Shown in pieces: positions 5,084-32,000 of a stretch of 32,000 nucleotides of DNA. The position numbers and the translations under genes are program-made. The notes below the pieces were generated by a model. The model saw only the letters and a list, made by a program, of their open reading frames with translations, searched no databases and was not told the DNA's origin. Every line of letters begins with the position of its first letter. The first letter of the stretch is position 1. This DNA is from Rhodocyclaceae bacterium (lineage in GTDB: Bacteria; Pseudomonadota; Gammaproteobacteria; Burkholderiales; Rhodocyclaceae), in contig JADJAS010000007.1 in the NCBI GenBank assembly GCA_016704145.1, positions 48,565-80,564 on the forward strand. Direction: 5' to 3'.

Positions 5084-5102
5084 GCGATATGGGGCATTCA
5101 CG

Positions 5103-9837: not shown

Positions 9838-9843
9838 CGCCGC

Positions 9844-12196: not shown

Positions 12197-12202
12197 GCCG
12201 GG

Positions 12203-12457: not shown

Positions 12458-12469
12458 TTGCTTGTCTCC

Positions 12470-13918: not shown

Positions 13919-13929
13919 GTCTCGTCTCC

Positions 13930-14436
13930 TTATATCTTGGAAAGAATCTTGTCCCACTTGCCCTGCGTCTTCAGGATCAACTCGGCCACCTCGCGCACGG
14001 CGCCATGGCCGCCAGGCGCCTTGGTGACGTACACCGCCGCCTCCCGCACTTCATCCACCGCGTCGGCCACCGCCACCGGGAAGCCGACCCGCTTCATCAT
14101 CGACAGGTCGACCAGGTCGTCGCCGACGTAAGCCACCTGGCTGTCGGTGATGGCCATCTCCTTCAGCATCAGCTCGTAGGGCTCGGTCTTCTTCTTGATG
14201 CCCTCGTGGAAGTACTTGATCTTCAGCTCATCGGCGCGGTGGCGCACGGCGCCCGACTTCTTCGAGGTGATGATGGCGACGTCGACACCGGTCATCTGCA
14301 GCGCGACCACGCCGAAGCCGTCCTTGATGTCGAAGTTGCGCTGCTCCAGGCCATTGTCGTCGATGACGATGCGCCCGTCGGTCATGACCCCGTCGACGTC
14401 GAGGATGACCAGCTTGATGTCTTTCGCCTTGTCCAT
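13930..14436 (-). CDS. ppcC: phenylphosphate carboxylase 18-kDa HAD-phosphatase subunit (KdsC-like)
   Basis: 168 aa. HAD motif I (ILDVDGVMTDG), ITSKKS, and a GDDLVDL motif typical of KdsC-type phosphatases. It lies between the two UbiD-like subunit genes. Confidence 0.8.
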   Translation of the reverse strand: MDKAKDIKLVILDVDGVMTDGRIVIDDNGLEQRNFDIKDGFGVVALQMTGVDVAIITSKKSGAVRHRADELKIKYFHEGIKKKTEPYELMLKEMAITDSQVAYVGDDLVDLSMMKRVGFPVAVADAVDEVREAAVYVTKAPGGHGAVREVAELILKTQGKWDKILSKI

Positions 14437-14445
14437 GTTTCCCTC

Positions 14446-15864: not shown

Positions 15865-15884
15865 TGATGATGCTCCTTCTCGGG

Positions 15885-16583
15885 TTAGTGCTGTGTGTTG
15901 TCCGTCGTCGCCATCGGTCTCGTGGCCTGGACCGATTCGATCACCTGAAAGCCAGCTCGCTCGATCGCCGCCACGACCTGCCCGGTATCGTCACTGTGAA
16001 ACCGGATCACCACGCGCTTGAACGGATGTGTTCGCGGATTGACATCAGTCGGTTTGCCAATGGGATAGATCGCCTGCAGTTCGGCGCCGGCGGCTTCGAC
16101 GATGTCGGCAATCCGTCCGATCGTGCCGGGCTTGACATCCATCGGCGCCAAGGTGACACCGCTGCGTTTTTCCCAGGCGCTCAGGAAGTGGGCCGCCAGG
16201 GCGAACATCTCGTTCGCCGAGATGATGCCGACGACCCGGCCATCCTCCATCACTGGCAACTGGGCGATGCCATGTTCAATCCCCACTTCCAGGCAGTGCT
16301 CCATGGTGTCGGACGCCTGGATGGTGACCGGATTGCGCACCATCAGGTCCTTGACCTTGACGCGCGTCGAGAAGTAGTTCTGTTCGTCGGCATCCTGCGT
16401 TCGCAGGACATAGTGCGCGGCACGCAGACAAATCGCCCGCGTGATCAGTCCGCGCAGCCGGCCATCATCCACCACCGGCAGCCCGTGCAGATTGTTGTCC
16501 GTGATGATTTGTTTCGCCTCGTGCACCAGGGTGTCGCTGCCGACTACGATGGGGTTCCGTTGCATCCAGTTGCGTACCAGCAC
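15885..16583 (-). CDS. ppsC: phenylphosphate synthase stimulating subunit (CBS-pair plus ACT-like domain)
   Basis: 232 aa (about 24 kDa). Two CBS-like repeats (MQRNPIVVGSDT...GLPVVDDGRLRGLIT and MVRNPVTIQASD...QLPVMEDGRVVGIIS). GTG start at 16583 is preceded by AAGGGAGAA. Confidence 0.8.
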   Translation of the reverse strand: MLVRNWMQRNPIVVGSDTLVHEAKQIITDNNLHGLPVVDDGRLRGLITRAICLRAAHYVLRTQDADEQNYFSTRVKVKDLMVRNPVTIQASDTMEHCLEVGIEHGIAQLPVMEDGRVVGIISANEMFALAAHFLSAWEKRSGVTLAPMDVKPGTIGRIADIVEAAGAELQAIYPIGKPTDVNPRTHPFKRVVIRFHSDDTGQVVAAIERAGFQVIESVQATRPMATTDNTQH

Positions 16584-16595
16584 CGTCTTCTCCCT

Positions 16596-17711
16596 TCACA
16601 TGAGACGCTTGCCCGCCAGCAGGCTGGACACGATGTAATCCATCGCGGAAGCGGTCGCCGTGACCGTCGCCGCTGGCTGACGGTTGCTCCAGATCGTCTC
16701 GGGGCGTGCCTGGAGGATGTAGATGTTGCCGCCCGCCGGCAGCGCCTTGTCAACGGCCCACTCGATGTCCATCGGCCGGCCATAGTGCTTCTCGATTTTC
16801 TTGGCCATCCAGGCGAGCTCGGTAATTTCGTCGTCGATCAGGCACTGTATCGATTGCCGCTCGAAGGGCACTTCCGTCGCCACCGACTTCTGGACCCGGG
16901 GGTCGACCGTGTAACACATCAGTTTGGTGGAAATGGTCCGCTCCAGGATGTCCAGCGTCACCTTGTTCACCACGAAATGATCGGGCGTCACCTCACCCGA
17001 GACCACCGACTCGCCGAATCCGAAGTTGGCGTCGATGACGATCACCGAGCGATCGCCGGTCGCCGGATGCAAAGTGAACATCACGCCCGCCGCATAGGCA
17101 TTAGCCATCTTCTGCACGCCGACGCTGATCGCCACCTGATCGTGGGGGAAACCCATCTTCGAGCGATACGCAATCGCTCGCGCCGTGTAAAGACTGGAGA
17201 TGCATCGACGCACATGATGAATCACGTCGTCGAAGCCACGAATCCAAAGATAGGTGTCCTGCTGCCCGGCGAAACTGGCGCCCGGGAGGTCCTCGGCCGT
17301 GGCGCTCGAACGGATCGCCACCGGCACCGAGGCCTGGCAGCAGCGTACCGAAAGTTTGCGATAGGCCTCGCCGATCAGATCCTCCAGTTCGATCGACATC
17401 GGTCGCGACTCGATCATGTCCCTGATGGCGGCCGACGACTTCTCCAGGCGGTCGAGATTGTCGTGATCGAGCCCCTGCAACAGTCCGGCAATCTCGGACT
17501 GAATCCCCGCCGCGCGCATGAATTCAGCGAAACCCGCGGTGGTCAAGGCGAAGCCCGGCGGAACCCTCGCGCCCGAACTGATCAGTTCGCCCAGCGAGGC
17601 GCACTTGCCGCCAACGAGCGAAATCGAGTCCTTGGTGCATTCCTCGAACCAGCTGAGCAAGGGAATTTTCGTCGCCGCTTCGCCAGGCTTTGCGGCCAAG
17701 ACGGTAGTCAT
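16596..17711 (-). CDS. ppsB: phenylphosphate synthase beta subunit (PEP synthase N-terminal ATP-grasp-like)
   Basis: 371 aa (about 40 kDa). The GGKCASLGELISSGARVPPGFALT signature matches the PEP/pyruvate-binding N-domain of PEP synthase/PPDK. SD ACGGAGA lies before ATG 17711. Confidence 0.85.
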   Translation of the reverse strand: MTTVLAAKPGEAATKIPLLSWFEECTKDSISLVGGKCASLGELISSGARVPPGFALTTAGFAEFMRAAGIQSEIAGLLQGLDHDNLDRLEKSSAAIRDMIESRPMSIELEDLIGEAYRKLSVRCCQASVPVAIRSSATAEDLPGASFAGQQDTYLWIRGFDDVIHHVRRCISSLYTARAIAYRSKMGFPHDQVAISVGVQKMANAYAAGVMFTLHPATGDRSVIVIDANFGFGESVVSGEVTPDHFVVNKVTLDILERTISTKLMCYTVDPRVQKSVATEVPFERQSIQCLIDDEITELAWMAKKIEKHYGRPMDIEWAVDKALPAGGNIYILQARPETIWSNRQPAATVTATASAMDYIVSSLLAGKRLM

Positions 17712-17734
17712 GCGTCGTCTCCGTGGTTCGGGTG

Positions 17735-19570
17735 TCAGCGAACGATCGTGATGTGTCCGGACGAACCGTCCACACGCAGCGACATGCCGGACTTGATCAC
17801 CTTGGTCGCGTACCCGGTGCCGACCACCGCCGGCATGCCGTACTCACGGCACACAATGGCCGCGTGGCTCATGACGCCACCGACATCGGTGATACAGGCC
17901 TTGATCTTGGCGAATGCCGGAGCCCACGACGGCGACGTGGTTGGCGCAACGAGAATCTCGTCCTCCATCAGATCGCGAATTTCCTCGGCGCCGAAGCACA
18001 CCCGGGCCTTGCCCTCGACAATTCCCGGACTGGCGGCAAATCCCTTCATCTCGGTGATGCTGTCGGGGTCGCCGACATCCTGCACCGACGCCCAATCCGA
18101 CAGCGACTTGTTGGTGACACCCCATAGGACGATGGTGAAAGGTTCCTGGATGACTTCGGGAGCCACGCCGATGGCGGGAGGCGCCCGCCATTCGCGAAAC
18201 TTCTGCATCACACCCTTGCGCCACTCGATCTCGGTTGGCCACGTCTTGGTGCCCCGCGGTTTTACGCCAGTGGCCCAAGCCGTCACGATGTCCCACAGTG
18301 CCTGCTTGATTTCATCGCGCCGCAGGTACCAGATATCCTCGACATCGTCGAGAATGCCATGTTCCTTCATGACCGCGGCCACCTGCCGGATCTTGTTCCA
18401 GAAAACCGAATGGAACCAGTGCTCGACGTAGAAAAGATGGTTCTCGACGTAGGGAAAGACAGTCTTCGCGCAGCCAAGCAGTTCATCGAACTGTTGTCGG
18501 TCGGCCTCGTTGGCGATCAGTTCGCGATACTCGGCGGTGATGCGGTCGCGCTCGGCGCGGACTTGCTCCATGGGCCGGTCGATATTGGCGCCAGAACGAA
18601 TCTTGTTGATGTAGGTCTGGATCCCAGAAAGGGGAATGCCCAGATTGTCGTTCCAACTCCGATCCGTATGGAACCACCCGGTACCGGACGAGATATTGAA
18701 CCAAGGGTAACGCGCCTTCTCGAACGCCGCCAGCCATTCGGCGCCGCCAGGCGATCTGGCGACGGCCACCTTGACATCCTCCCATTCCCGATGCTCGGTA
18801 ACCGCTCGGTCGACTCCAAGCAGGATGGCCTTCTTGGCCAGCCCCTTGAGTTCGTCATCTGGCCTATACATGATGACATCGATGCCCGATATCATCTGCG
18901 TCACGCGCTGGAGCGGAATGCTCGGGAAAAGTTTCTGGGCAAAGTCCATGAAAAACACGTACGCGGCATAGCCCAGGTTGAGAAACTCGAAGTGGTACTG
19001 CCAGCACTTGATGCCCAGGTTGATCAGGTCGTCATAGTTCTTGATCAGGTGGTAGCCTCGCGACTCGCCGACGCCATCGGTGACGATGCTCAAGTCCTCG
19101 ACCTCGGGCAGACGGGGAATCTCCAGCGCTTCGAGCTCGGCGATGGTTGCCTCCATCTTGACCTTCCACTTGGCCTCGAGGTCATCCCAGTTCTTGTAGT
19201 AGTAACCCGCCCGCTCCATGAAGTTGGGTACACGCGCGCCAATCTCCTCGGGGTCGCGCACGGGCACGGGTGAAATGTAGACATAGCCGTTGATGATCCG
19301 GTGGTCGACCCCTCGCACCGGCGGAACTTGAAAGATGCGGTTGTTGAACTGAGACAAGGCGAGATACCACGCCTCGTCCCATATCGTGTCGAATGGATAC
19401 AGTGGCTCGGGATAATGCAATCCGTCGTAGAACCAGAACGTCTCCTTTTCGTAGCGGTTGCGCTCGGCGTCATCGGTGACAAACTGATACTGGTAGGGGT
19501 ACATGCGCTCCCATCCCTCGGTACCGGGAATGGTCTTCGCCTTGACGTCATGCGGATTGGGGAATTGCAT
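17735..19570 (-). CDS. ppsA: phenylphosphate synthase alpha subunit (PEP-utilising enzyme with phosphohistidine mobile domain)
   Basis: 611 aa (about 70 kDa) from ATG 19570 (MQFPNPHDVK), which is preceded by AGGAGGAGG. The C-terminal TDVGGVMSHAAIVCREYGMPAVVG is the phosphohistidine swivel-domain motif. The track start at 19621 lacks an SD. Confidence 0.85.
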   Translation of the reverse strand: MQFPNPHDVKAKTIPGTEGWERMYPYQYQFVTDDAERNRYEKETFWFYDGLHYPEPLYPFDTIWDEAWYLALSQFNNRIFQVPPVRGVDHRIINGYVYISPVPVRDPEEIGARVPNFMERAGYYYKNWDDLEAKWKVKMEATIAELEALEIPRLPEVEDLSIVTDGVGESRGYHLIKNYDDLINLGIKCWQYHFEFLNLGYAAYVFFMDFAQKLFPSIPLQRVTQMISGIDVIMYRPDDELKGLAKKAILLGVDRAVTEHREWEDVKVAVARSPGGAEWLAAFEKARYPWFNISSGTGWFHTDRSWNDNLGIPLSGIQTYINKIRSGANIDRPMEQVRAERDRITAEYRELIANEADRQQFDELLGCAKTVFPYVENHLFYVEHWFHSVFWNKIRQVAAVMKEHGILDDVEDIWYLRRDEIKQALWDIVTAWATGVKPRGTKTWPTEIEWRKGVMQKFREWRAPPAIGVAPEVIQEPFTIVLWGVTNKSLSDWASVQDVGDPDSITEMKGFAASPGIVEGKARVCFGAEEIRDLMEDEILVAPTTSPSWAPAFAKIKACITDVGGVMSHAAIVCREYGMPAVVGTGYATKVIKSGMSLRVDGSSGHITIVR

Positions 19571-19649
19571 CGTCTGCCTCCTCCTGGAGAACGTCGTTCG
19601 TCCGGGCCGATGAACGAACACTGGGTTGACTTTCCTGTCCTACCAACCA

Positions 19650-19664
19650 GCAAAGCCCATGCCA
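19650..19664 (-). promoter_or_regulatory. sigma54 (-24/-12) promoter of the pps/ppc operon
   Basis: The minus strand reads TGGCATGGGCTTTGC (GG-N10-GC spacing; consensus TGGCAC-N5-TTGC). It lies about 80 nt upstream of ppsA ATG 19570, and a sigma54 activator gene is divergent. Confidence 0.7.
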
Positions 19665-19833: not shown

Positions 19834-19875
19834 ATTGATCAACTTTCCCGCGCCGGCGGCCATGAATTGATCAAC
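19834..19875. promoter_or_regulatory. two copies of ATTGATCAAC (palindromic core TTGATCAA) 32 bp apart; candidate enhancer-binding-protein UAS
   Basis: Exact 10-mers at 19834-19843 and 19866-19875. They lie 170 and 202 bp upstream of the -24 element, in the divergent pps / regulator intergenic region. Confidence 0.5.
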
Positions 19876-19973: not shown

Positions 19974-20003
19974 TCCACCTTTTCCAAGCAAGGCACGAAC
20001 GCC

Positions 20004-21758
20004 ATGGCGAAGGCTGGCGAGATCAGAACGGCGCCCCGCGAAGCGACGCGGTGGAAGAGCGAGGGTCTACGCGGGCGCTTGCGTTTCGGTGCGGAAAGCG
20101 GCCAGATCTGGCTTGACGAGCACCGAATGCTTCTCGTGCATGCCGAGGCGCAAGCTCTGCTGCGCAAGGAGCTCATCGATTCGCTGGGCATGGAGCGCGC
20201 TCGCGGTCTACTCACACGCATGGGCTTCGCTTCCGGGATGCGCGATGCGCAAATCGCTCGGGAGCGATTCGCCGATGCTAGCGACATGGATGCGTTCATG
20301 ACCGGCCCCCAACTGCATACGCTTGAAGGCATCGTTAACGTGACGCCGATCAAGGTCGAACTCGACCGGATGGCGGGGCATTTCTATGGTGAGTTTCTAT
20401 GGGAGGACTCGTGGGAAGGCCAATGGCACCGGCATTACTACGGCATCCATTCCGAGCCTGTCTGCTGGACGCAGATTGGCTATGCCTGCGGGTATACCTC
20501 CGCGTTCATGGGTCGCACGATCCTCTACAAGGAAGTCGAGTGCACCGGCATGGGCAGCAACAATTGCCGCATCGTGGGCAAGCCCATCGAGGAATGGCCG
20601 GATGCGGCGGAACATGCCAAATATTTCAGCCCAGACTCGATTGCCGAACAGCTGATTGATCTCCAGACGGAGGTAGTCCAGCTACGCTCAACCATTGGTG
20701 ACCGCCATCAGCACAGCGACGATGTGAGAGGCATTTCTCCTGGGTTCTTGGCCGCCTTCGAACTGCTGAAACAGGCGGCCGGCTGTAGCATCACCGTCTT
20801 GTTGCTTGGCGAGACAGGCGTTGGCAAGGAAGTATTCGCCCGAAGCCTGCACGACATGGGGCCCCGCCGCGACTCGCCGTTCGTCGCGGTAAATTGCGCG
20901 GCGATTCCGCATGACCTGGTCGAATCGGAACTCTTCGGCGTGGAGAAAGGCGCCTTCACGGGCGCGCAGCATACCCGCCCGGGCCGATTCGAACGTGCCA
21001 ACGGCGGCACCTTGTTTCTCGACGAAATAGGCGACCTACCCTTGGCCGCACAGGCAAAGTTGCTTCGCGTTCTTCAGGATGGCGAAGTGGAGCGGCTGGG
21101 TGATCAAAAGTTGCGCAAGATCAATGTTCGTCTCGTCGCCGCAACCAATGCCGGACTCCAAGGGCTCGTCAGGGAAGGACGATTTCGTTCCGACCTTTAC
21201 TACCGACTGAATGCCTATCAGGTCAAGATTCCGCCGCTACGCGAGCGCAAACAGGATATTCCGGTTCTAGCAAAGCACTTTCTGGCAAAGTACGCCGCCA
21301 TCAATGGGAAGAAACTTCGCGGCTTCACGGACAAGGCCAAGCGCGCCCTGCTTGCATATCGATGGCCCGGCAACATCCGCGAGTTGCAGAATATGGTGGA
21401 ACGCGGGGTGATACTGGCTCCCAACAGTGGTCAGGTAGAAGTCAACCACCTGTTTCTGTCCCACTGCGATGGCAGCGATCAACCGAGCGAATTCGAGTTC
21501 GGCCTCGCCAGTGATGGCGGCATCACCGGCACCCGCTGGGAAACGGGCGAGGATCTCTGTGACGCCGTTTTCAATGGCAGGATGACGCTCGACCAGGTGG
21601 AGGCGATGTTGCTGACCGCCGCCGTCGACAAGGCGCGTGGCAACTTGTCGGCGGCGGCGCGATTTCTTGGCATCACTCGAGCGCAACTCGCCTATCGGCT
21701 AAAACGGCTGCGGGCGGCCGAAGCCGAACTCGATGCGGAGATCGGTGTCTTCTCTTGA
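20004..21758 (+). CDS. sigma54-dependent transcriptional activator of the XylR/DmpR (phenol-responsive) family
   Basis: 584 aa. N-terminal XylR_N/V4R-type sensor (CWTQIGYACGYTSAFMGRTILYKEVECTGMGSNNCRIVGKP). AAA+ core with GETGVGKE Walker A, the GAFTGA sigma54-contact loop and FLDEIGDL Walker B. C-terminal Fis-type HTH (GNLSAAARFLGITRAQLAYRLKR). Confidence 0.9.
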   Translation: MAKAGEIRTAPREATRWKSEGLRGRLRFGAESGQIWLDEHRMLLVHAEAQALLRKELIDSLGMERARGLLTRMGFASGMRDAQIARERFADASDMDAFMTGPQLHTLEGIVNVTPIKVELDRMAGHFYGEFLWEDSWEGQWHRHYYGIHSEPVCWTQIGYACGYTSAFMGRTILYKEVECTGMGSNNCRIVGKPIEEWPDAAEHAKYFSPDSIAEQLIDLQTEVVQLRSTIGDRHQHSDDVRGISPGFLAAFELLKQAAGCSITVLLLGETGVGKEVFARSLHDMGPRRDSPFVAVNCAAIPHDLVESELFGVEKGAFTGAQHTRPGRFERANGGTLFLDEIGDLPLAAQAKLLRVLQDGEVERLGDQKLRKINVRLVAATNAGLQGLVREGRFRSDLYYRLNAYQVKIPPLRERKQDIPVLAKHFLAKYAAINGKKLRGFTDKAKRALLAYRWPGNIRELQNMVERGVILAPNSGQVEVNHLFLSHCDGSDQPSEFEFGLASDGGITGTRWETGEDLCDAVFNGRMTLDQVEAMLLTAAVDKARGNLSAAARFLGITRAQLAYRLKRLRAAEAELDAEIGVFS

Positions 21759-22213
21759 CCAGCGCACTTCGCGAGCGCGTGCTCGAACAACTCGCGGATC
21801 ATCACGTCCTCTCCCTGGCCACGACGGGCCCGGAAGGGCCGTGGGCCGCCGCGGTATTCTATGCGCATGATGGTTTGTCCCTCTACTTTCTCTCCTCTCC
21901 GACCAGCCGCCACGCCCTAAACATCGGCGCTGGCACGGAAGTGGCCGCCACGATCCAACACGACTACGATGACTGGCCAGGCATTCGCGGGCTACAGTTG
22001 CAAGGCCGCGCCGAACCCGTTGCCGCGCACGATGAGGCCGGGGTACGACAGCGATACGCCGCGCGTTTCCCCGTTATCGGGTTGTCCGCGAGGGCCCCGG
22101 CCGCGATCGTCCGCGCCCTGGATCGCATCCGCTGGTATGTCCTTTGTCCTCGCGCCATCTGGTTAATAGACAACAGGCGCGGATTTGCTCACCGCGAGCG
22201 ACTCGATGTGTAG
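21755..22213 (+). CDS. pyridoxamine 5'-phosphate oxidase (PNPOx) family FMN-binding protein
   Basis: 152 aa. ERVLEQLADHHVLSLATTGPEGPWAAAVFYAHDGLSLYFLSSPTSRH, then the GLQLQGRAEPV pattern typical of PNPOx-like split barrels. The TTG start overlaps the activator stop (TCTTGACC), and there is no in-frame ATG near the 5' end. Confidence 0.6.
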   Translation: MTSALRERVLEQLADHHVLSLATTGPEGPWAAAVFYAHDGLSLYFLSSPTSRHALNIGAGTEVAATIQHDYDDWPGIRGLQLQGRAEPVAAHDEAGVRQRYAARFPVIGLSARAPAAIVRALDRIRWYVLCPRAIWLIDNRRGFAHRERLDV

Positions 22214-22274
22214 GCGGCTTGCTTCATTCCCCCTCTTGCTTGGTTGGTGAAATTCCGGATTCTTGACGGGGAAA

Positions 22275-22320
22275 TTTGATCAAATCGTCAATCATTGGTC
22301 TTCCAATGATTGACGATTTG
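22275..22320. promoter_or_regulatory. TTTGATCAAA palindrome fused to a perfect 18-bp inverted repeat (4-nt spacer); candidate UAS/operator
   Basis: CAAATCGTCAATCATTGG (22281-22298), TCTT, then CCAATGATTGACGATTTG (22303-22320) are exact reverse complements. TTGATCAAATC spans 22276-22286. The element lies about 130-170 bp upstream of the sigma54 promoter at 22448. Confidence 0.55.
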
Positions 22321-22447
22321 TCGCCACTTCCTTCCAGTGTATCCAGAATCGCCGCCGAGGCTGTTCGAGCCCCACGCGCTCTTCGCCATCGACGCGTACT
22401 CGGCCTTTCGGTCGAGTGATCACAATATCGCACCGCACAACGACACC

Positions 22448-22462
22448 TGGCACGAGCCTTGC
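22448..22462 (+). promoter_or_regulatory. sigma54 (-24/-12) promoter, perfect consensus
   Basis: TGGCACGAGCCTTGC matches TGGCAC-N5-TTGC exactly. It lies on the + strand about 213 nt upstream of the BNR lipoprotein ATG at 22675. Confidence 0.7.
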
Positions 22463-22674
22463 GGACAGTGCCCGGTGAGTTGACGCGAATTCTCGGCCAA
22501 TACAACCGCCAGACCAACCACGATATCCATTCAAAGCCAAGCATGATCAAGGCAATGCGCCACCGCCAGCCTCATCCATCAACGGAGACTTCAATGGCGC
22601 CATGCCCCCAACTTTGTGTCGACGAGAACGTCGCAATTAGCGACATTGCCGCTTCTCGACACAACGGGGTGACG

Positions 22675-23612
22675 ATGAAGTTCATCATGCTCTGCCTGAC
22701 TGGTTTACTGCTGACTGGTTGCCGTGGTGTAACGGACCCATCGCAAGTGGCGATGGGGGGTGGGGAAGCGCTGAAGCGCTATGACGTGATACAGGCGCTG
22801 GGGTGGAATGGTGAGGTGATGGTGGGTGGGAGTCAGGCGGGGGCGGTGGTGGTATCGGCGGATGGTGGGAAGAGCTGGCGGCGGGAGAATTTGGTGGGGG
22901 CCAGTGTGATGGGTCTGGCGGCATGTCCGGACGGCGGGTTTGTCGGGATTGACTTCAACCACAAGGTTTGGAGTGGCGATCGGCAAGGTCAGGCATGGCG
23001 GAGCGCCGAGTTGGACAAGCCGCGGGTACCGCTGGCGGTCACCTGTGATGGTCGGGGCCGGTGGTGGGTGGTGGGGTCTGGGGCCAGGATAGCGGTCAGT
23101 GTTGACCGGGGAGTCAGCTGGACGGTGACTGACCTGCAAGAAGACGTTCAATTCACCACGGGCCCAGTTTGTTGATGACCGGCACGGTTTTGTTCTGGGC
23201 GAATTTGGTTACGTCGTGGTCACCGACGATGGCGGCGAGAGCTGGCGCAAGCTGAGCCAGATTCCGGGCGAGTTTACCCCTACGCCGCCCTCTTTCTCGA
23301 CCGCAACGAAGGCTTCGCCAGCGGCATCGCCGGGCAAATGCTGCATACCGTCGATGGGGGCAAGACCTGGAGCCGGATGGCCAACCCCAGCGGTGCGGCG
23401 CTCTACCGGCTGTTTCTGCACGAAGGCCGGCCTTATGGCGTTGGCGCCGGCGGTGTCATTGCCCGGCTGGAAGAAGGCCAATGGCGGTCGGTGCCGTACC
23501 CGGATGCCGTGCCGGCGTTTCTGGGTTCGGCGGCCAGCGTCGCGGGAGGCATCGTCATCGTGGGCCGGGCGGCTTGCGGGTCGTGGCGATCACGCCAGGA
23601 GCGGGCGCATGA
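22675..23612 (+). pseudogene. BNR-repeat / Ycf48-like beta-propeller lipoprotein, disrupted by three frameshifts
   Basis: Lipoprotein signal MKFIMLCLTGLLLTGC. BNR motifs SADGGKSW, SVDRGVSW, TDDGGESW and TVDGGKTW are spread over frames 1, 2, 1 and 3. Frame 1 stops at 23173-23178. The frame-3 end (GGLRVVAITPGAGA) stops at a TGA that overlaps the RND ATG as ATGA. Confidence 0.6.
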
Positions 23613-25891
23613 GTGGCGGTGGGCTGCGCCAGCGCATCACCCATGGCCTGCACGTTGGCGAGGAATGGCTGTTTGCCAATCCCAAGATCGTGCTTGGGCT
23701 GATTCTAGCCGCCACCCTGGCCTGGAGTCTGTTTCTGCCCAAGCTGCGGGTGTATTCCGACTTTGCCGACCTGCTGCCGCAACAGCATGCCTACATCACA
23801 GAGTACAACCGGATCAAGGAAGGCTTTGGCGGCGCCAACCAGATCGTCATGGCCATTGAAGTCGAGCAAGGCACCATTTTTAACGATGCCACGCTCAAGC
23901 TGGTGCATGAAGCCACCCAGGGGATGGACAACCTGCCCAGCGTCAACCACAACCTGGTGGCCAGCCTGACGCACCGGACCGCGCGCAAGGTCTATCTCAG
24001 CGCCGAAGGCAACTTTATGTCCGAGCCGTACTACGACCCGCTGAAGGGCAACCGGACGGCGGCCGAGTTCGAGCGGATGAAGAAGGACGTCATTGCCAAC
24101 CCCACCATCTACGGTCTTCTGGTCTCGCCCGATCTCAAGGCTGCGCTGATCAAGGCCCAGCTCAACGAAGCCGACCTCGACTACGTCAAGACCTTCGCCG
24201 AACTCCAGAAAGTGCGGGAAAGCCTGGCGCGGCCCGGGCACAAGATCCACGTCACCGGCAATCCCGTGCTCACCGGCTGGGTCTATACCTACCTCAACCA
24301 GATTCTGGGCATTCTGGCCTGCTCCCTTCCTCATTGCCGCCCGCGCCACCTCCCACGGCGTCCAGCTGGTGGCGCGCTACTACGAAGAACTGGCCAAGAC
24401 CCACCACGGCGCCAAGGCGGCGCGCAACGCCCTCGATGCCCTGTTCCGGCCGGGCAGTCTGGCCATCATCGTGGACGCGGTCGGCATAGCCGTGCTCATG
24501 CTGGGTGCCGCCCCCTTCAACCACAAGCTGGGTCTGGCGGCCGGCTTCTGGGGCTTCTCGGTCATCTTCACCGTGCACTTCATGGTACCGCTGGCGCTGA
24601 CCATCCTCAGCGCAGCCGCGGGAGATGGAGAACAAGAACGAAGGCGTGCGCAACCTGCTGGGCCGGGCCATGGCCATGACCGGCGGCACCGACGGTGGCG
24701 CGCGGGCCATCCTGGCCGTGGCGGCGCTGTGCGCCATTGGCGGCGGCTGGTTCATTGCCCGGGTGCAGCTGGGCGAATCCGAGGCGGGCAGCCCGCTGCT
24801 GCACCGGCACCACGACTACAACCGATCGACCCAGGCCATCAACACCCTGTTCCCTGGCTCCGAGGAATTGCACGTGGTGGCGCGTACCGACGAGAAGGGC
24901 GGCATCAAGCGGCCGGACGTCATGGCCGCCATCGAGCGCTTTCAGGCGCACATGCTGGCCGATCCCGGTCTGGGCGGCACCAAGGCCATTCCCGGGGTGG
25001 TGCGGGTGGTGGAACCGGCTGACCCACAACGACGACCCGCGCTGGATGCAGCTGCAGGACAATGCCGAGGAAGTGGGCGGCCTGATGTTTGCCTACATGG
25101 CCAGCAGTCCGATACCGGGGGCCCTGAAGGAATTCATCAGTCCCGACGAGAACGAAGCCAACATGGTGTTCTTCTACAAGGACCACCAGGCCGACACCAT
25201 CAACCGGGTGGTGGCCCTGGCCGAGGCGGGCATCAAGCAGATCGAGCGGGACGTGCCCGGGCTGCACATTGAACTGGGGGGCGGCATCATCGGCGTCACG
25301 GCGGCGGCCAACCAGGCCCTGCACCGGGACCACATGATCATCATCCCGGCGGTGATGATCCTGGCCTTTGCCCTGGTCATGCTGTACTACCAGTCGTGGC
25401 ACGCCGGCTGGCTGATGGTGTTGCCCATGCTGTTCGCCACGGTGATGACCTATGCCTACATGGGCGCCGCCCACATCGGCATCAACGTCAATACCGTGCC
25501 GGTGATCGCCGTCGGGGTGGGGGTGGGCATCGACTATGCCGTCTATTTCATGGACCGCATCCGCGAGGAAATGGCGGCCACCCGGAACATTCACCGGGCG
25601 GTGGTCAATGCGGTGGCCACCACGGGTTACGCCGTCTCGTTCACCGCGGCGACGCTGATTGCCGGGGTGATCATGTGGATATTTCTGTCGGACCTGCGGT
25701 TCCAGTCGGACGCGGCCATCCTGCTGTCGTTCATGCTGGTCGTCAATGCCATTGCCGCCATGCTGATCGTGCCGGCCTGGTGCGTCGTGTTCAAGCCGCA
25801 CTTCGTGGTGGCCACGCATTACGACGCGGATGGCGTGCTGGAGGAAGACGCGGCGAACGGTGGCGGTCTGGCGGGGGTGAAGGCGGGGTAA
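23609..25891 (+). pseudogene. RND-superfamily (MMPL/HpnN-like) inner-membrane transporter, disrupted by three frame changes and an apparent internal deletion
   Basis: The family-typical sequence reads in frame 2 (23609 to about 24318), frame 3 (to about 24610; PFLIAARATSHGVQLVARYYEE), frame 1 (to about 25015) and frame 2 (to TAA 25891; GVGVGIDYAVYFMDRIREE). The first half lacks about 55 aa (TM2-TM3) compared with the internally homologous second half. Confidence 0.6.
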
Positions 25892-25913
25892 ACCTTAGAG
25901 GAGGAGGACAGCG

Positions 25914-28091
25914 ATGAAGATCGAGCGGATGAACAGGAAGCGGATGGTGGTGGCGACGGCGCTGGCGCTGGCGGGACTGGGCTCGCTACCGGCGCGGGCG
26001 AACAACTTGCCGTCGCTGGGCGGCGATGTCGAGCCCTGGCGGGTCGATGTCTATTACGAGAACGACACGCGCTTCCGGGGCAAGGACAAGAGCGGGGACC
26101 GGGTCGGGCTGTCGAAGTTCAGGAACACCTTGCAGGTCGAGGCCGACAAGAAGGTGGGTGACGGCTGGGCGGTGCGGGGCATCCTGCGCGGCACCTGGGA
26201 CGGCGTCTATCGGCTCAACGAGGACGAATACGGCAAGGACGCCGGCAGCAAGACCGCGGCCGACGTGCGGATTCCCAACACGGCCGGGCCGGTGGCCCAG
26301 TCGGTGGGGCTGTTCGGGCCCCCCTCGCCCGTACATGTTCATTACGGTGCCACCGTGCCATTCGGCGGTGGGGTGGGCTTTACCGTGGTGGATGTCATCC
26401 AGGCCGGCGCGGGGCTGCCCAACTTGGGCGGACCGGGCGGCGGGCCGGGCGTGAACAAGTTCATCGATCCCAACTATGGCAACCTGGCGGCGCCGCCGGC
26501 CGTCTACGGCTCGGGCGCCGGCCTGCAACTCCTGGGTGAGCGCTGGAACCGGACCGGATCGGGCGTGGCCTTTGCCGTACCGGTGCGGCCGTGCGACAAG
26601 GACAAGCGCGGCTGCCGCGACTTTGGCGGCTATGGCGACAAGAAGCTCTCCGAACTGGAGGCGCCCGAGTTCAACGACCGGGCCGACTTCATTCGCGAAC
26701 TCTATGCCAAGAAGACCTTCGACCTGGCCGACGGCGGCAACTTCTTCCTCAAGCTGGGCCGGCAGCAGGTGGTCTGGGGCCGCACCGACCTGTTCCGCGT
26801 GCTCGACGTCATCAACCCGGTGGACTACTCGCGCAACAACATCTACGACGAGTTGCAGGACATCCGCATTCCGATGTGGATCGCCCAGGGCGAATGGCGG
26901 ATGGGTGGCTCGGGCAGCATGCAGGAGCGCAACCTGCAGGTGGTGTGGAACTTCGACAAGTTCCGGCCGAACAACCTGGGCCAGTGCGGCAGCCCCAACG
27001 TCATTCTCGACGCTGGCTGCTTCTTCCGCGGCATGGCCAATCTCTGGGACCACGGCGGCACGGTGGCCAACTTCGCCGGCTTCAGCGCCCCGGGCACCCC
27101 GGCGCCGGTCGATGGCGTCTGGTTCGCCACCAACTTCGGGCCGAACCAGATCGGCATCCGCAAGGTGCACCTGCCCGAATGGAGCCTGGCCAACACCCAA
27201 CTGGGGATGAAGTTCGAAGGCGTCACCCAGGGCGGCCTCAACTTCTCGGTCAATGCCCTGACCTATCGTTCGCAACTGCCGAGCCTGCGCTCGATCAACC
27301 AGGTGGCGATCAACCCCTTCACCGGCGCCCACGGCAACACGTCGCCGTTCTCCGGACCGGCCCAGGGCATTCCGACCACCAACCTGATCGCCTTCGACGT
27401 CTATTTCCCGCGCATCAACCTGATCGGCGGCTCCATGGACTTCCAGTCCGAGGCGCTGGGCGCAGCGTTCCGGCTCGAGGGCGCCCTGACCAAGGGCGAG
27501 GAATTCGCCAACACCGCCCGGCCGCGGCTCTACTCCGAGAACAAGGTGTTCCGTTCGGTGATCGGCGTGGACCGGCCGACCTTCATTCCCTTCATCAACC
27601 CGAACCGTACCACCCTGATCTCGGCGCAATTGTTCTACCAGCACATCTTCGACCACGAATCGAGGCGCATGCCGGGGGGCCAGGTCGGCATGCCCGACTG
27701 GAAGGACAACTATATCGGCACCCTCCTGATCAAGGGCTTCGTCATGAACGACCGGGTCAGCCCGACCCTGATCCTGGCCCGCGACTTCAGGGCCCGGGCC
27801 TGGGCGATCGCCCCCTCGGTGGAGTGGAACGTCACCGACGATCTCAAACTGACCTTCGGCGCCAACGTCAAGAACCGTGACGATCAGAGCCGCTGGGAGT
27901 TCGACGACTGCCGCTCCTGCAACCCCTACGCGCCCTACACCATGTACACCAACGGCGCCACCACCCAGGGCTTCACCCCGGGCTCGTTCGGCCTGTCCGG
28001 CATCGAGCCGCTCGGCCGCTTCCGCGCCGGCCCCATCGGCGCCGCCTGGAAGGAAAACGAGCTCTACGTCACCCTCAAGTACAAGTTCTGA
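25914..28091 (+). CDS. DUF1302-family outer-membrane beta-barrel protein
   Basis: 725 aa. SD GGAGGAGGA before ATG 25914. Signal peptide MVVATALALAGLGSLPARA. LKLGRQQVVWGRTDLFRVLDVINPVD is characteristic of DUF1302. The C-terminal LKYKF carries the terminal aromatic residue typical of OMPs. Confidence 0.75.
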   Translation: MKIERMNRKRMVVATALALAGLGSLPARANNLPSLGGDVEPWRVDVYYENDTRFRGKDKSGDRVGLSKFRNTLQVEADKKVGDGWAVRGILRGTWDGVYRLNEDEYGKDAGSKTAADVRIPNTAGPVAQSVGLFGPPSPVHVHYGATVPFGGGVGFTVVDVIQAGAGLPNLGGPGGGPGVNKFIDPNYGNLAAPPAVYGSGAGLQLLGERWNRTGSGVAFAVPVRPCDKDKRGCRDFGGYGDKKLSELEAPEFNDRADFIRELYAKKTFDLADGGNFFLKLGRQQVVWGRTDLFRVLDVINPVDYSRNNIYDELQDIRIPMWIAQGEWRMGGSGSMQERNLQVVWNFDKFRPNNLGQCGSPNVILDAGCFFRGMANLWDHGGTVANFAGFSAPGTPAPVDGVWFATNFGPNQIGIRKVHLPEWSLANTQLGMKFEGVTQGGLNFSVNALTYRSQLPSLRSINQVAINPFTGAHGNTSPFSGPAQGIPTTNLIAFDVYFPRINLIGGSMDFQSEALGAAFRLEGALTKGEEFANTARPRLYSENKVFRSVIGVDRPTFIPFINPNRTTLISAQLFYQHIFDHESRRMPGGQVGMPDWKDNYIGTLLIKGFVMNDRVSPTLILARDFRARAWAIAPSVEWNVTDDLKLTFGANVKNRDDQSRWEFDDCRSCNPYAPYTMYTNGATTQGFTPGSFGLSGIEPLGRFRAGPIGAAWKENELYVTLKYKF

Positions 28092-28109
28092 TCCAGGAGA
28101 TCCATCCCC

Positions 28110-29423
28110 ATGAAACTCAAACCCCTCACCCTCGCCTCCACCCTCGCCCTGGCTTCCACTATCACCTCCCTCGCCTCCGCCGCCACCGAGACGGAACTGG
28201 ACAATGCCTTCCATCCGTACAAGAAGGGTTTCCCGGCTTTCCCGGGACTCAATCCCGGTCTGGTCATCAACAAGGCCAATGTCGACCAGTTCAAGGACGC
28301 CCTCGATCCGGCCAACTACCAACTGGTCAAGGATGGCTGGTACGAAGTCACCGCGGTTCCGACCATCGACTTCCCCAACGCCAAGGGCTATGTTGAAGCA
28401 ACCAAGGCCCATTCGGGCAGCGTCAAGCTCGGCGGCAAGAACGGTGAAATCAGCGGTTACGTTGCCGGCCGGCCCTTCCCCGAGGAGCCGGATCTCAAGG
28501 ATCCGCGCGCCGGCGAGAAACTCGCCTGGAACTTCAAGTACGGCATCAACTGGGGTGACAACGCCGCCATCTATCCTTTCTACTGGCGCTATCGCAACGC
28601 CACCACCGGTCAGGTCGAACGGACCATCAAGTTCAATTTCCACTTCCTCAATTTCAAGCACCGCAACGACCATCCACCGATTCCGGAGGTGACGCCCAAT
28701 CCGTCGCAATTGTTCCGGGGTATCTACGTGCAGGTACTGGAGCCGCAGGACCTGAAGAACACCCAGCTGCTGATCCAGCGTTACGAGGACGACCTCAAGC
28801 TCGATGACGCCTACCTGTACCTGGGCTTCCAGCGCCGGGTACGCCGCCTGGCTACGGGGCAGACCACTGACGCCTTTCTCGGCTCGGACGTCATGATCGA
28901 GGATTTCGAGGGCTACAACGGTCGCATCTCGGACATGAAGTGGACCTTCCTCGGCACCAAGAACATTCTGATGCCCTACTACCGGGCCACCGACGTCAAG
29001 CGTACCGACGAGTTCAAGGATCCGGACGGCTACAAGTTCATCGATGTCGGCGGCAAGGGCAACTGTATGCCCACCATCGGCTGGCAGTTGCGCAAGGTGC
29101 ACATCCTGCAGGCCGAACCGGTGAATCCGAATCACCCGATCAGCAAGCGAGTCATCTACCTCGATGCCCAGGTCTTCGGCGCCTCGCGCACCTTGATCTA
29201 CGACCGCAAGGGCGAGCTTTGGAAGAGTTGGATGATCGGCAAGGCGCATCCCGACTTCCATCTGCCCATTAACAAGGGCACCGGCATCGCCCTCGACGAC
29301 TCCTTTTCCATGATCGACGTCCAGGCCAAGCATTGCACCACCGGCCAGTTCAAGGGGCAGGTCGATCCCAAACTCAATCCGCCCTCACTCTTCCAGGTGC
29401 AAAACCTCCGCAGCGGCGACTAG
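28110..29423 (+). CDS. DUF1329-family periplasmic (LolA-like fold) protein
   Basis: 437 aa. Signal peptide MKLKPLTLASTLALASTITSLASA. GRPFPEEPDLKDPRAGEKLAWNFKYGINWGD matches the DUF1329 N-terminal signature as I recall it. It lies 18 nt after the DUF1302 gene. Confidence 0.7.
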   Translation: MKLKPLTLASTLALASTITSLASAATETELDNAFHPYKKGFPAFPGLNPGLVINKANVDQFKDALDPANYQLVKDGWYEVTAVPTIDFPNAKGYVEATKAHSGSVKLGGKNGEISGYVAGRPFPEEPDLKDPRAGEKLAWNFKYGINWGDNAAIYPFYWRYRNATTGQVERTIKFNFHFLNFKHRNDHPPIPEVTPNPSQLFRGIYVQVLEPQDLKNTQLLIQRYEDDLKLDDAYLYLGFQRRVRRLATGQTTDAFLGSDVMIEDFEGYNGRISDMKWTFLGTKNILMPYYRATDVKRTDEFKDPDGYKFIDVGGKGNCMPTIGWQLRKVHILQAEPVNPNHPISKRVIYLDAQVFGASRTLIYDRKGELWKSWMIGKAHPDFHLPINKGTGIALDDSFSMIDVQAKHCTTGQFKGQVDPKLNPPSLFQVQNLRSGD

Positions 29424-29478
29424 CACAACCATTCTTCTGATCTTCTCCGACGCGTCTTCCAAAAAGCTGACGCTTCTC

Positions 29479-29507
29479 CGGGGGCCCTTGGGCCCCCGCT
29501 CTTTTTC
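29479..29507 (+). terminator. Rho-independent terminator after the DUF1329 gene
   Basis: The GC stem CGGGGGCC / GGCCCCCG surrounds CTTG and is followed by CTCTTTTTC (T-run 29502-29506). It lies 56 nt after the stop at 29423. Confidence 0.7.
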
Positions 29508-29615
29508 GCCACCCGGAGACCACGACCGGACCAGCCATGGCCTGTCGGACACCCTGCTAGAATTATTATCCGATCAATACCGTCGCCACCCGGCATCCAT
29601 CGAAGGCCACTCCTC

Positions 29616-30773
29616 ATGTCAGGCAACACTTTTGGCAGGCTGTATTGCGTGACATCTTTCGGGGAATCGCATGGACCGGCAATCGGCTGTGTCGTCGATG
29701 GTTGCCCGCCAGGGCTGGAGCTTTCCGAACCCGACATCCAGCGCGATCTTGACCGCCGAAAACCCGGGACCTCGCGTCACGTGACGCAGCGACGCGAACC
29801 CGACCGGGTGGAAATCCTTTCCGGAGTCTTCGAGGGCAAAACCACCGGGACACCGATCGCGTTGCTGATTCGCAACGAGGACCAGCGCAGCCGTGATTAT
29901 CGGGAAATCGCCGAGACCTTCCGTCCCGGTCACGCCGATTACACCTATTGGCAAAAGTACGGCATCCGCGACCACCGTGGTGGCGGTCGAGCCTCCGCGC
30001 GCGAAACCGCCGTGCGCGTCGCGGCCGGTGCCATCGCCCGCCAGTGGCTGTCGAAAAGATTCGGCATCGAGGTCCGCGGCCACATGACGGCGCTGGGCGA
30101 TCTCGAAATCCCTTTTCGCTCCTGGTCGCACGTGCACGACAATCCATTCTTTGCGGCTGAACCAGATGTTGTTCCCGAGCTTGAGGCGTGCATGGATCGC
30201 CTGAGGCGAGAGGGAGATTCAATCGGCGCCGGGGTACGGGTAGTCGCCAGTGGCGTGCCAGTCGGCTGGGGCGAACCCGTCTATGACCGTCTCGACGCCG
30301 ACATTGCCTCGGCCATGATGGGCATCAACGCGGTCAAGGGTGTTGAGATCGGCGCTGGCTTTGCCAGTATCCGGCAGCGTGGTAGCCAGCACGCCGACGA
30401 ATTGTCACCCTCCGGCTTTCTCGGCAATCATGCCGGCGGTATTCTTGGTGGCATTTCCACGGGACAGGACATCGAGGTTGGTCTTGCGGTCAAGCCGACA
30501 TCCAGCATACGCATCCCGCGGCGGACCATCGACAAGGCGGGTCATGCCGCGCTGATATCGACCGAAGGTCGTCATGACCCTTGTGTCGGCATTCGGGCCG
30601 TGCCGGTTGCCGAAGCCATGATGCTGATCGTGCTCATGGACCACGCGCTGCGCCATCGCGCGCAGTGCGCCGACGTCCGATGCCCCACCCCGAAGATTGC
30701 GCCGGGCACCGGCGGTCCTGCCGCCGGCCCGATGGAAACCCGGCACGATCCCGAACCCGAGGAAGATGCCTGA
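29616..30773 (+). CDS. aroC: chorismate synthase
   Basis: 385 aa. [47 protein letters not shown] and [18 protein letters not shown] are classical AroC signatures. Confidence 0.95.
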
Positions 30774-30790
30774 ATCGCACGATCGAAGGA

Positions 30791-31252
30791 TCAACGCTTC
30801 TCGGGAAATATTTTTTTCAGCAGTTTCACCAAGGTTTGCCGCTCCGTCGGACTCAGCGTGGCGACCAGCCGTTTCTCGTGCTCGCCGACCCTCTGCTTGA
30901 TCCTGCGCAGCAAGGCCGCGCCGTCACTCGTCAGGCGCAAGGCGTTGGATCGCCTGTCATTGGGTGCGGCGCGGCGCTCGACCAGACTTCGGCGCTCGAG
31001 ATTGTCGATGACCGACACCACGGTCGAGCGGTCGAGATGTGTCGCCCGCGCCAGTTCGCTCTGCTTTAGATCGGGGTTGGCTTCGATGATCACCAAGACA
31101 CCAAAAAGACCCGGTGTCATGTCCAGATCACCGATGCTCTCGGAAAAATCCTTGAACATCGCGATCTGAGCCATGCGCAGTTGGAAACCGACCAGTTCTG
31201 GCAGTAACCCCAGCGAAATGCTGGTCGGCGAAACCTTCTTCATGGCAGACAA
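30791..31252 (-). CDS. MarR-family transcriptional regulator
   Basis: Winged-helix core QSELARATHLDRSTVVSVIDNLERRSLVERRAAPNDRRSNALRLTSDG. The track start at 31252 is TTG. ATG 31243 (MKKVSPTS) is an equally plausible start. Confidence 0.85.
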   Translation of the reverse strand: MSAMKKVSPTSISLGLLPELVGFQLRMAQIAMFKDFSESIGDLDMTPGLFGVLVIIEANPDLKQSELARATHLDRSTVVSVIDNLERRSLVERRAAPNDRRSNALRLTSDGAALLRRIKQRVGEHEKRLVATLSPTERQTLVKLLKKIFPEKR

Positions 31253-31281
31253 GTGCGCGTCACTCCCGTCGATACCAGCTC

Positions 31282-32000
31282 TTAGCCCGCCAGAGCGGTC
31301 TTGATCTGCTCCAGCGTCGACGGATCGTCGATGGTGGTCAGGTCGCCCGGATCACGGCCCTCGGCCAGTGCCTGGATCGATCGGCGCAGCATCTTGCCCG
31401 AGCGCGTCTTCGGCAGGCCACTGACGAAATGCACGTGCTTGGGCCGGGCGATGGCGCCGAGGATGCCGTCGACGGTCTTCTTCACTTCGGCTTCCAGCGC
31501 CGCGCGCAGTTCGGGCGTGGCGGTCCTGGCCGCATCCTTGACGACGGCGAAGGCCATCGGCTCCTGACCCTTCAACTGGTCATTGACGCCGACCACCGCA
31601 ACCTCGGCGATGGCCGGATGCGCCTGCACGGCCTCCTCGATTTCGCGCGTGCCGAGGCGGTGGCCGGCGACGTTGATGACGTCGTCGGTGCGGCCAAGGA
31701 TGAAGTGATAGCCCTCCTCATCCTTGATGCCCCAGTCGAATGAGCTGTAGACCAGCGGATCCTTGAACAGGCTGAAATAGGTGCTGACGAAGCGCTCGTC
31801 CTGGCCCCAGACGGTGGACAGGCAGCCCGGCGGCAGCGGCGGCAGCACGCCGACGATGCCCTTCTCGTTCGGCGCGCACTCACTGCCGTCCTCGCGGAAG
31901 ATTTTCAGGTCGTAGCCGAACACCGGGAAGCTCGGTGTGCCGAACTTGATCTTGGTCTTCTCGATGCCGGGCACCGACGACAGCATCGGCCACCCGGTCT
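31282..32000 (-). CDS. acyl-CoA synthetase (propionate/acetate-CoA ligase family), C-terminal part; 5' end beyond the window
   Basis: ILGRTDDVINVAGHRLGTREIEEAV and the C-terminal SGLPKTRSGKMLRR are ACS/PrpE-type motifs. The frame stays open upstream of the track ATG (31986) to the window edge. Confidence 0.8.
   Translation of the reverse strand, partial: TGWPMLSSVPGIEKTKIKFGTPSFPVFGYDLKIFREDGSECAPNEKGIVGVLPPLPPGCLSTVWGQDERFVSTYFSLFKDPLVYSSFDWGIKDEEGYHFILGRTDDVINVAGHRLGTREIEEAVQAHPAIAEVAVVGVNDQLKGQEPMAFAVVKDAARTATPELRAALEAEVKKTVDGILGAIARPKHVHFVSGLPKTRSGKMLRRSIQALAEGRDPGDLTTIDDPSTLEQIKTALAG

Follow-up and report, generated by a model that had tools for sequence, protein, structure and literature searches.

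The 32,000-nucleotide (nt) stretch of DNA analysed here, referred to as the window (contig JADJAS010000007.1, positions 48,565 to 80,564), is, judged by its gene content, an anaerobic phenol/p-cresol catabolic island from a Rhodocyclaceae-like bacterium. Beside its phenol genes lies a cassette of four genes that encode, in this order, a BNR/Ycf48-like beta-propeller lipoprotein, an MMPL-type RND pump, a DUF1302 outer-membrane beta-barrel and a DUF1329 periplasmic LolA-like protein (Table 1). The four genes are contiguous (22675-29423) and lie between one promoter and one terminator, and no sigma70-like promoter was found inside the unit. An earlier note on this DNA had singled out the DUF1302/DUF1329 pair as the intact outer half of a trans-envelope system, and both genes were recovered as uninterrupted open reading frames (ORFs) with exactly the boundaries listed in Table 1. 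Its statement that only these two components are intact holds for the sequence as written; however, the lesions in the other two genes are private to the window, and three near-identical contigs carry those genes intact.

Table 1. Features of the cassette, its control region and the adjoining catabolic genes (positions in nt of the window; a dot marks elements listed with no strand)
Feature	Position	Strand	Basis or remark
BNR/Ycf48-like beta-propeller lipoprotein gene, frameshifted, pseudogene as written	22675..23612	+	lipobox LLTGC
MMPL/HAE3-type RND pump gene, disrupted	23609..25891	+	Pfam MMPL on C-terminal fragment
DUF1302 outer-membrane beta-barrel, intact, 725 aa	25914..28091	+	Pfam 1.9e-44
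DUF1329 periplasmic LolA-like protein, intact, 437 aa	28110..29423	+	Pfam 1.1e-74
Cassette sigma54 -24/-12 promoter TGGCACGAGCCTTGC	22448..22462	+	exact TGGCAC-N5-TTGC
TTGATCAAATC element followed by a perfect 18-nt inverted repeat (CAAATCGTCAATCATTGG / CCAATGATTGACGATTTG)	22276..22320	.	candidate activator binding region
Intrinsic terminator, 8 G-C pairs and T-run	29479..29508	+	closes the unit after DUF1329
DmpR/PheR-type sigma54 activator	20004..21758	+	Pfam: XylR_N, V4R, AAA+ with GAFTGA, HTH_8
Two TTGATCAA elements, 32 nt apart	19835..19874	.	upstream activating sequence-like pair for a XylR/DmpR-type activator
Sigma54-type -24/-12 promoter TGGCATGGGCTTTGC of the pps/ppc phenol operon	19650..19664	-	one mismatch to TGGCAC-N5-TTGC
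PNPOx/YhbP-like small protein	21755..22213	+	Pfam PF01243
Two PchF-like flavoproteins, aldehyde dehydrogenase and CoA ligase genes	487-6647	plus	
Phenylphosphate synthase-like (PEP-utilizers, PPDK_N), three UbiD-like, HAD-type, UbiX-like flavoprotein and Nudix genes	9334-19621	minus	

Both intact products are assigned to their families by Pfam scores far above the gathering cut-offs. Specifically, the DUF1302 protein matches PF06980 with 153.1 bits (cut-off 23.2) over residues 50-664, and the DUF1329 protein matches PF07044 with 252.3 bits (cut-off 23.1) across the whole profile (positions 1-368 of 368), in addition to a match of 52 bits to PF17131 LolA_like. The hidden Markov model (HMM) assignment that the earlier note had listed as a check therefore bears out its domain names. 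The DUF1302 gene has its own strong ribosome binding site (GAGGAGGAGG), and its product starts with the signal peptide MKIERMNRKRMVVATALALAGLGSLPARA and ends in ...LKYKF, with phenylalanine as the final residue, whereas the signal of the DUF1329 protein (…SLASA/ATE) is of the signal peptidase I type and lacks a lipobox. Long beta strands predominate in the AlphaFold2 (AF2) model of DUF1302 (predicted local distance difference test score, pLDDT, 77.5; predicted TM-score, pTM, 0.81), which matches only generic outer-membrane barrels (TonB-dependent receptors, porins and AlgE). In the DUF1329 model (pLDDT 81) the LolA-like part is extended by an extra N-terminal domain, and Foldseek matches it to LolA3 (9tp6), 3bk5 and the DUF1329-family structure 4z48 with target TM-scores of 0.75-0.79 and E-values of about 1e-14. 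Searched by sequence against solved structures, DUF1302 gave no match and DUF1329 only weak LolA-like ones. The signals, the PF17131 match and the predicted folds agree with a secreted, LolA-like DUF1329 protein and a barrel-forming DUF1302 protein with a C-terminal phenylalanine, as the note had described them.

The inner half of the cassette was compared with three independent contigs that are about 99% identical to the window: L001, a syntenic metagenome contig (98-99.8% identical), L085 from NCBI and L086 from JGI. L001 encodes an intact 339-amino-acid (aa) BNR lipoprotein, which matches Ycf48 structures (E 1e-20), and an intact 810-aa MMPL protein, whose top NCBIfam match is HAE3 TIGR00921 with 160 bits, below the cut-off of 351.9. 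Relative to L001, the BNR gene of the window has single-base insertions or deletions (indels) at 23163, 23273 and 23560. In the RND gene a compensated complex change at 23799-23804 is followed by a net loss of 152 nt at 24322, which takes out about residues 238-289, and by +1 insertions at 24608 and 25011. The predicted products as written are a BNR protein of 166 aa and an RND protein of 356 aa, about 238 residues of which are native; with both genes inactivated, the operon as written would be unable to make the inner half. At all lesion positions L085 and L086 agree with L001 and keep both genes intact, and thus every BNR and RND lesion is, in these comparisons, private to the window sequence. 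Among the outer components, DUF1302 differs from L086 at 51 synonymous and 18 nonsynonymous codons, and no identical DUF1302 protein is on record. DUF1329 shows two dense mosaic patches against L001 (28295-28457 and 28780-28892), and compared with L002, a contig from another metagenome, its DNA is 99.9% identical and its protein identical. This strain variation in the outer components looks like recombination or diversifying exchange.

The control region links the cassette to the phenol genes. The cassette promoter sits in a 462-nt gap that precedes the BNR gene and is the sole exact match to TGGCAC-N5-TTGC in the window (0.07 expected), and the pps promoter is located ~29 nt upstream of the ppsA-like start at 19621. 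The motif TTGATCAA occurs three times in the 32 kb (0.36 expected), each time in one of the two sigma54 promoter regions: the pps -24 element has its pair 171 and 203 nt upstream, and the cassette -24 element has one TTGATCAAATC/TTGATCAA copy with the 18-nt palindrome 172 nt upstream, a distance that matches the pps promoter. Known sites of XylR/DmpR-type activators are paired, TTGATCA-containing palindromes about three helical turns apart and 100-200 nt upstream of -24/-12 promoters; the spacing of the pps pair agrees with this geometry, and the single copy with its palindrome at the cassette promoter is a candidate site of this kind. The regulator gene between them encodes a protein whose closest solved relatives are CapR/DmpR (6iy8, E 4.7e-159), with the sensor domains of PoxR and MopR also matched; it scores 606 bits against the MobR model NF041906 (cut-off 999), and its GAFTGA motif is intact. 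PheR is known as the phenol sensor that adjoins pps-ppc. Because an exact -24/-12 promoter, a TTGATCAA element at the pps-matching distance and an adjacent DmpR/CapR-like regulator gene occur together, phenol-type sigma54 control of the cassette, which the earlier note had proposed from the shared motif, is well supported as a prediction. In L001 the regulator gene lacks 42 nt (L001:2722; window 20940-20981), with loss of the 14-aa segment VEKGAFTGAQHTRP that contains the GAFTGA sigma54-contact loop. The damage in the two strains is reciprocal: L001 combines a crippled regulator with an intact pump, the window an intact regulator with a broken pump.

To place the cassette among its relatives, we used the 80 best species-level loci (L003-L082) and scored gene order where the flank allows. 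The order BNR-RND-DUF1302-DUF1329 is kept in all of them wherever it can be read, in about 60 species, so that the recurrent four-gene arrangement described in the note is real, and the RND gene is a single full-length piece in 64 of the 72 loci with a match, the other 8 being cut by contig ends. Within this clade DUF1329 keeps 65-75% identity across classes, whatever the neighbouring pathway. Flanking ORFs were clustered and the clusters named by NCBIfam. Genes that recur upstream include those for 2-oxo-3-hexenedioate decarboxylase, 4-hydroxy-2-oxovalerate aldolase, acetylating acetaldehyde dehydrogenase, catechol 2,3-dioxygenase (C23O) and 2-hydroxymuconic semialdehyde dehydrogenase, together with a DmpP-like phenol hydroxylase reductase cluster that falls below curated cut-offs and was named by domain layout and context. 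Of the 50 loci that could be evaluated, 32 (18 of 29 genus labels) have two or more phenol hydroxylase or meta-cleavage genes immediately before the cassette and in the same orientation, a co-occurrence with aromatic catabolic clusters that the note had suggested looking for. At one locus, for example, dmpN-O-P, ferredoxin, C23O and hydrolase genes are followed by the cassette, in Azoarcus sp. L1K30 a remnant meta pathway precedes it, and in Aromatoleum aromaticum EbN1 (L091:1-22035) acetophenone carboxylase-like and CoA ligase genes are followed by BNR-MMPL-DUF1302. Some loci adjoin mrdA-rodA-rlpA. A sigma54 promoter directly upstream of the BNR gene was found in none of 57 other species, and the dedicated promoter predicted in the window is therefore evidently lineage-specific.

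Several further observations concern these relatives. Across this clade (L003-L082, L087 and L089) the cassette most often closes an aerobic operon for phenol hydroxylase or catechol meta-cleavage, and the phenol-linked loci include sulfur-oxidising symbionts (Candidatus Thiodiazotropha) and methylotrophs. DUF1329 is absent from its usual spot in EbN1, where a 473-aa DUF1329 gene is found 8 kb further on, past an insertion sequence (IS) element. In Denitromonas (L088:3968-11302) two IS/transposase genes replace BNR and most of the pump, leaving a 267-aa pump fragment beside intact DUF1302 and DUF1329 genes. Single in-frame stops occur in the RND gene of Candidatus Thiodiazotropha endolucinida (L039:5343-7745) and in the BNR gene of a Zoogloea metagenome-assembled genome (L026:4596-5384), so occasional disruption of an inner component is not unique to the window. 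At L018:64-6928 the RND protein is 95% identical to the query (the intact L001 copy) and DUF1302 92%, with DUF1329 at just 71%, a mismatch that suggests exchange of single genes between cassettes.

The cassette belongs to an already known type, and the earlier description of the system as uncharacterised no longer applies: AmeABCD has been studied experimentally, cofitness has been recorded by randomly barcoded transposon sequencing (RB-TnSeq), and membership in phenol regulons was published in 2019. AmeABCD of Castellaniella defragrans 65Phen confers monoterpene tolerance and efflux; its deletion renders cells monoterpene-sensitive and increases Nile Red accumulation, an ameB transposon mutant grows poorly on monoterpenes, and the AmeABCD mutant is rescued by a co-substrate (PMC6394551). 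Compared by family rather than by sequence identity, AmeABCD and the window cassette share a DUF1302 barrel, a DUF1329/LolA-like protein and a Ycf48-like propeller of COG4447 as well as an RND pump, which is of the HAE3 family in AmeABCD and putatively so in the window, and each is encoded as a single cassette in a catabolic island for a toxic hydrophobic substrate, with substrate induction and a tolerance/efflux phenotype recorded for Ame (PMC6394551). Measured against this type, the window has the DUF1302 barrel, the DUF1329/LolA protein and a single cassette; an intact propeller is lacking, as is an intact RND pump with the 12 transmembrane segments of the type. The gene order is A-B-C-D in AmeABCD and C-D-A-B in the window (PMC6394551), the substrates are monoterpenes in the one and presumably phenolics in the other, and the window differs further in having its own sigma54 promoter and DmpR-type regulator and in that genes C and D are broken.

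The link to phenol is likewise on record. In a comparative genomic study of Betaproteobacteria, COG4447, COG1033, PF07044 and DUF1302 were placed in AphR/AphS/AphT phenol regulons and proposed to help cells cope with toxic aromatic concentrations or solvent stress (PMC6449761). In Dechloromonas, Methylibium, Azoarcus BH72 and Burkholderia 383 the same four families share regulation or a transcript with aph/dmp genes, and, as predicted for the window, a XylR/DmpR-type activator is combined with TTGATCA-containing sites 100-200 nt upstream of -24/-12 promoters; however, the Aph operons encode aerobic phenol hydroxylase and meta-cleavage enzymes, whereas the window cassette lies beside the anaerobic phenylphosphate synthase/carboxylase genes and has a dedicated promoter (PMC6449761). 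A further parallel comes from EbN1, where the sigma54 regulator EtpR governs a catabolic cluster together with an adjacent ‘efflux’ cluster (ebA326-ebA335) (PMC4630880). The likeness is one of arrangement and control: the gene for a XylR-type regulator separates an anaerobic phenolic cluster from a putative solvent efflux cluster, and both clusters have sigma54 promoters and need the regulator and a phenolic inducer (PMC4630880). The substrate of the EtpR system is p-ethylphenol, as opposed to phenol for the window. By RB-TnSeq the four genes cofit; pipA/pipB are p-cresol-induced in Thauera aromatica T1, and further members lie in other aromatic clusters. On the basis of pleiotropic phenotypes, Price et al. 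suggested that a cell-wall component is exported, and the Pseudomonas putida homologues PP_0765/PP_0766 are required when cells grow on Tween 20 or butyl stearate. The Pseudomonas and Shewanella genes (PP_0765/6 with PP_2018/9, and Sama_1588-1591) comprise the same four families and cofit, but unlike those of the window they are often split between two loci, have LuxR-type regulators, and show Tween 20/fatty ester or pleiotropic phenotypes outside any phenol context. In AlphaFold multimer predictions the partner of DUF1329 is either the barrel or the BNR-RND pair. The HAE1 tripartite solvent pumps (TtgABC/SrpABC type) share the proposed role, substrate-induced extrusion of aromatic solvents, but where they have a membrane-fusion protein and a TolC-like channel the window operon has a LolA-like protein, a propeller lipoprotein and a DUF1302 barrel; Pfam found no HlyD or OEP family match on any operon protein. 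What the window and its relatives add is an extension of the phenol link (the 32 of 50 loci) and, by the genes present, an anaerobic phenol pathway.

We favour, with a probability of roughly 0.55, the reading that the intact pair is the outer half of a sigma54-dependent operon for an Ame-type, four-part envelope transporter that exports hydrophobic or phenolic compounds upon phenol induction and thereby serves solvent tolerance. In this mechanism, phenol would bind the DmpR/PheR-type regulator and both sigma54 promoters, those of the pps/ppc operon and of the cassette, would fire. The proton-driven RND pump, working with the propeller lipoprotein in the inner membrane, would take phenolic or hydrophobic molecules from the inner membrane or the periplasm, and the LolA-like DUF1329 protein would ferry them to the DUF1302 barrel, which would release them outside. 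The outcome would be a cell shielded from its own toxic substrate, as with AmeABCD and monoterpenes. This proposal starts from the family assignments, predicted folds, operon boundaries, promoter and TTGATCAA elements, regulator, gene order and attachment to phenol operons described above, and borrows from AmeABCD, and from how RND pumps generally behave, the transport direction, the nature of the substrate and the way in which one part passes it to the next. That the cassette acts on phenolic or hydrophobic molecules, as the earlier note suggested from the position beside the phenol/cresol genes (the pps/ppc and PchF-like genes of the window), is made plausible by the phenol-gene context in 32 of 50 loci and by the AmeABCD phenotype.

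Five points weigh against this proposal. A substrate is biochemically established for no member of the family, and the function of this locus is a prediction; uptake or lipid export would explain equally well why P. putida needs the homologues on Tween 20 and butyl stearate; and the sigma54 promoter before BNR is seen in 0 of 57 other species. In addition, the pump is broken, so the proposed mechanism cannot run from the operon as written, and polarity from the premature stops, which lie 1.2 kb upstream of DUF1302, may reduce the expression of that gene.

The broken pump itself has two explanations. Either the lesions are very recent decay or they are a local artefact of the sequence, and the intact state of DUF1302 and DUF1329 would correspondingly reflect either how lately the damage arose or the absence of real damage. 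That a local sequencing or assembly error produced the BNR and RND lesions, and that the organism has the same intact cassette as its near-identical relatives, is a serious contender to which we give somewhat less than even odds. All 9 merged events fall within 23102-25056 and none in 25057-30101. Six of the nine involve indels, several being clusters of a substitution plus an indel, a spectrum that is odd for natural mutation. Furthermore, the ‘TE’ that the window has at the complex change near 23800 is absent from every homologue, the flanking parts of BNR and RND are 100% identical in four strains, and the deletion junction was not found in JGI metagenomes. A second, flank-based scan gave intact versions only. 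On the other hand, the remaining 30 kb of the window are frameshift-free, and the 152-nt deletion lies beside a CCTG microhomology, which is atypical of base-calling error. The events are also restricted to BNR and RND, with P=4e-4 relative to the comparable 7.6-kb stretch. The first impression that the events cluster significantly inside the two genes was dropped after a range test (P=0.077). Finally, L001 has a loss-of-function lesion of its own, the deletion of the regulator GAFTGA, and decay in this regulon may therefore be real.

Among the alternatives for function, the cassette could export an envelope lipid or cell-wall component from the inner to the outer membrane, as an HpnN/MmpL-like pump with a Lol-like shuttle, and so harden the envelope under solvents. 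We consider this rather unlikely. The RND pump is nearest to the HAE3/MMPL lipid exporters (HpnN, MmpL3 and BstA), DUF1329 has the fold of the LolA lipid carrier, and the proposal of Price et al. points the same way, as do the 65-75% identity of the DUF1329 clade across classes irrespective of the adjacent pathway and the presence of mrdA-rodA-rlpA beside some loci. The cassette has, however, been recruited repeatedly to catabolic operons for hydrophobic substrates as unlike as phenol, acetophenone and monoterpenes, and both the substrate-specific growth defect and the Nile Red result of AmeABCD are at odds with export of a lipid.

It is improbable, in our estimate, that the lesions are real and that DUF1302/DUF1329 is nevertheless under selection as a pair that works without its cognate pump, either served by a paralogous BNR-RND pair encoded elsewhere or combining passive passage through the outer membrane with a periplasmic binder of phenolics. 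In its broader form, in which the pump and lipoprotein are dead and the selected outer pair is a self-sufficient or pump-swappable module for phenolic passage in aerobic and anaerobic phenol degraders, the idea has equally poor odds. All 6 frame-disrupting indels lie in BNR-RND and none in the equally long DUF1302/DUF1329 (P about 0.012 if the four genes were neutral), and the strain differences in DUF1302 are mainly synonymous. If the lesions are real, the indel-free outer pair would hint at ongoing selection, but this is weak evidence because so little divergence has elapsed; with lesions so recent, undamaged downstream genes say little. The intact pair next to an IS-truncated pump in Denitromonas L088 would suit such a module, as would the separate loci of the two halves in Pseudomonas and the frequency of paralogues; yet the split Pseudomonas halves still cofit, which means that they depend on each other, and in this clade the pair always adjoins an intact pump. 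Moreover, the upstream stops should cut expression of the pair by polarity. The suggestion in the earlier note that the outer two components work without their cognate pump thus rests on private lesions, set against a pump that is intact and adjacent in 64 related loci, and is not supported: a pump-independent function is possible, but the lesions are no sound evidence that the outer pair acts alone.

Import of hydrophobic growth substrates over the outer membrane and periplasm, in place of export, seems to us quite doubtful. It would account for the need for the P. putida homologues on Tween 20 and butyl stearate, the weak growth of the ameB transposon mutant on monoterpenes and the tie of the cassette to catabolic operons. 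However, proton-driven RND pumps of this superfamily act outward, phenol crosses membranes unaided, and two traits of the AmeABCD mutant, its rescue by a co-substrate and its increased dye accumulation, point to export. Lastly, the idea that DUF1302 and DUF1329 are esterases, raised for PP_0765/PP_0766 on the strength of the fitness phenotype on fatty esters, is scarcely credible: the same laboratory later preferred a transport complex, and we rejected it on the folds, a transmembrane-type beta-barrel and a LolA-like model with no hydrolase-like match.

A few features of the surroundings complete the picture. After the regulator gene the order is PNPOx-like, BNR, MMPL, DUF1302, DUF1329 and aroC, the last on the same strand as DUF1329. 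The start of the PNPOx/YhbP-like gene overlaps the regulator stop and lies upstream of the cassette promoter; the gene is kept in L001 and is not beside the cassette in other species. Relative to L001, the aroC (chorismate synthase) gene has a short divergent patch with a net 15-nt insertion (29885-29915), and a 14-nt insertion is found further downstream, outside called genes (30846-30859). A megablast search of 20000-32000 against plasmids matched only the regulator, at 74%. In a number of Rhodocyclaceae loci (L092:13536-17299, L027:11340-15104, L017, L018, L021-L023 and L030) a three-gene molybdenum enzyme of the xanthine dehydrogenase family directly follows DUF1329; its naming as 4-hydroxybenzoyl-CoA reductase was not adopted, since the scores are well below the curated cut-offs, and it also falls below the xanthine dehydrogenase cut-off.

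We know of no member of the four-protein system for which the substrate is established or the barrel structure solved. The conceptual gain over published work is modest, and the sole unusual trait of this locus, an intact outer pair next to a pump that is broken, is private to one sequence and may not be real. The system recurs beside pathways for toxic hydrophobic substrates, a list to which the window adds the anaerobic phenol pathway, and the locus offers a clean predicted phenol-switched promoter, of possible practical use for phenol bioremediation strains and for phenol biosensor or chassis design. The near-identical strains with an intact and with a broken pump would provide a natural comparison of phenol tolerance and flux, and of what the outer pair may do without its pump.

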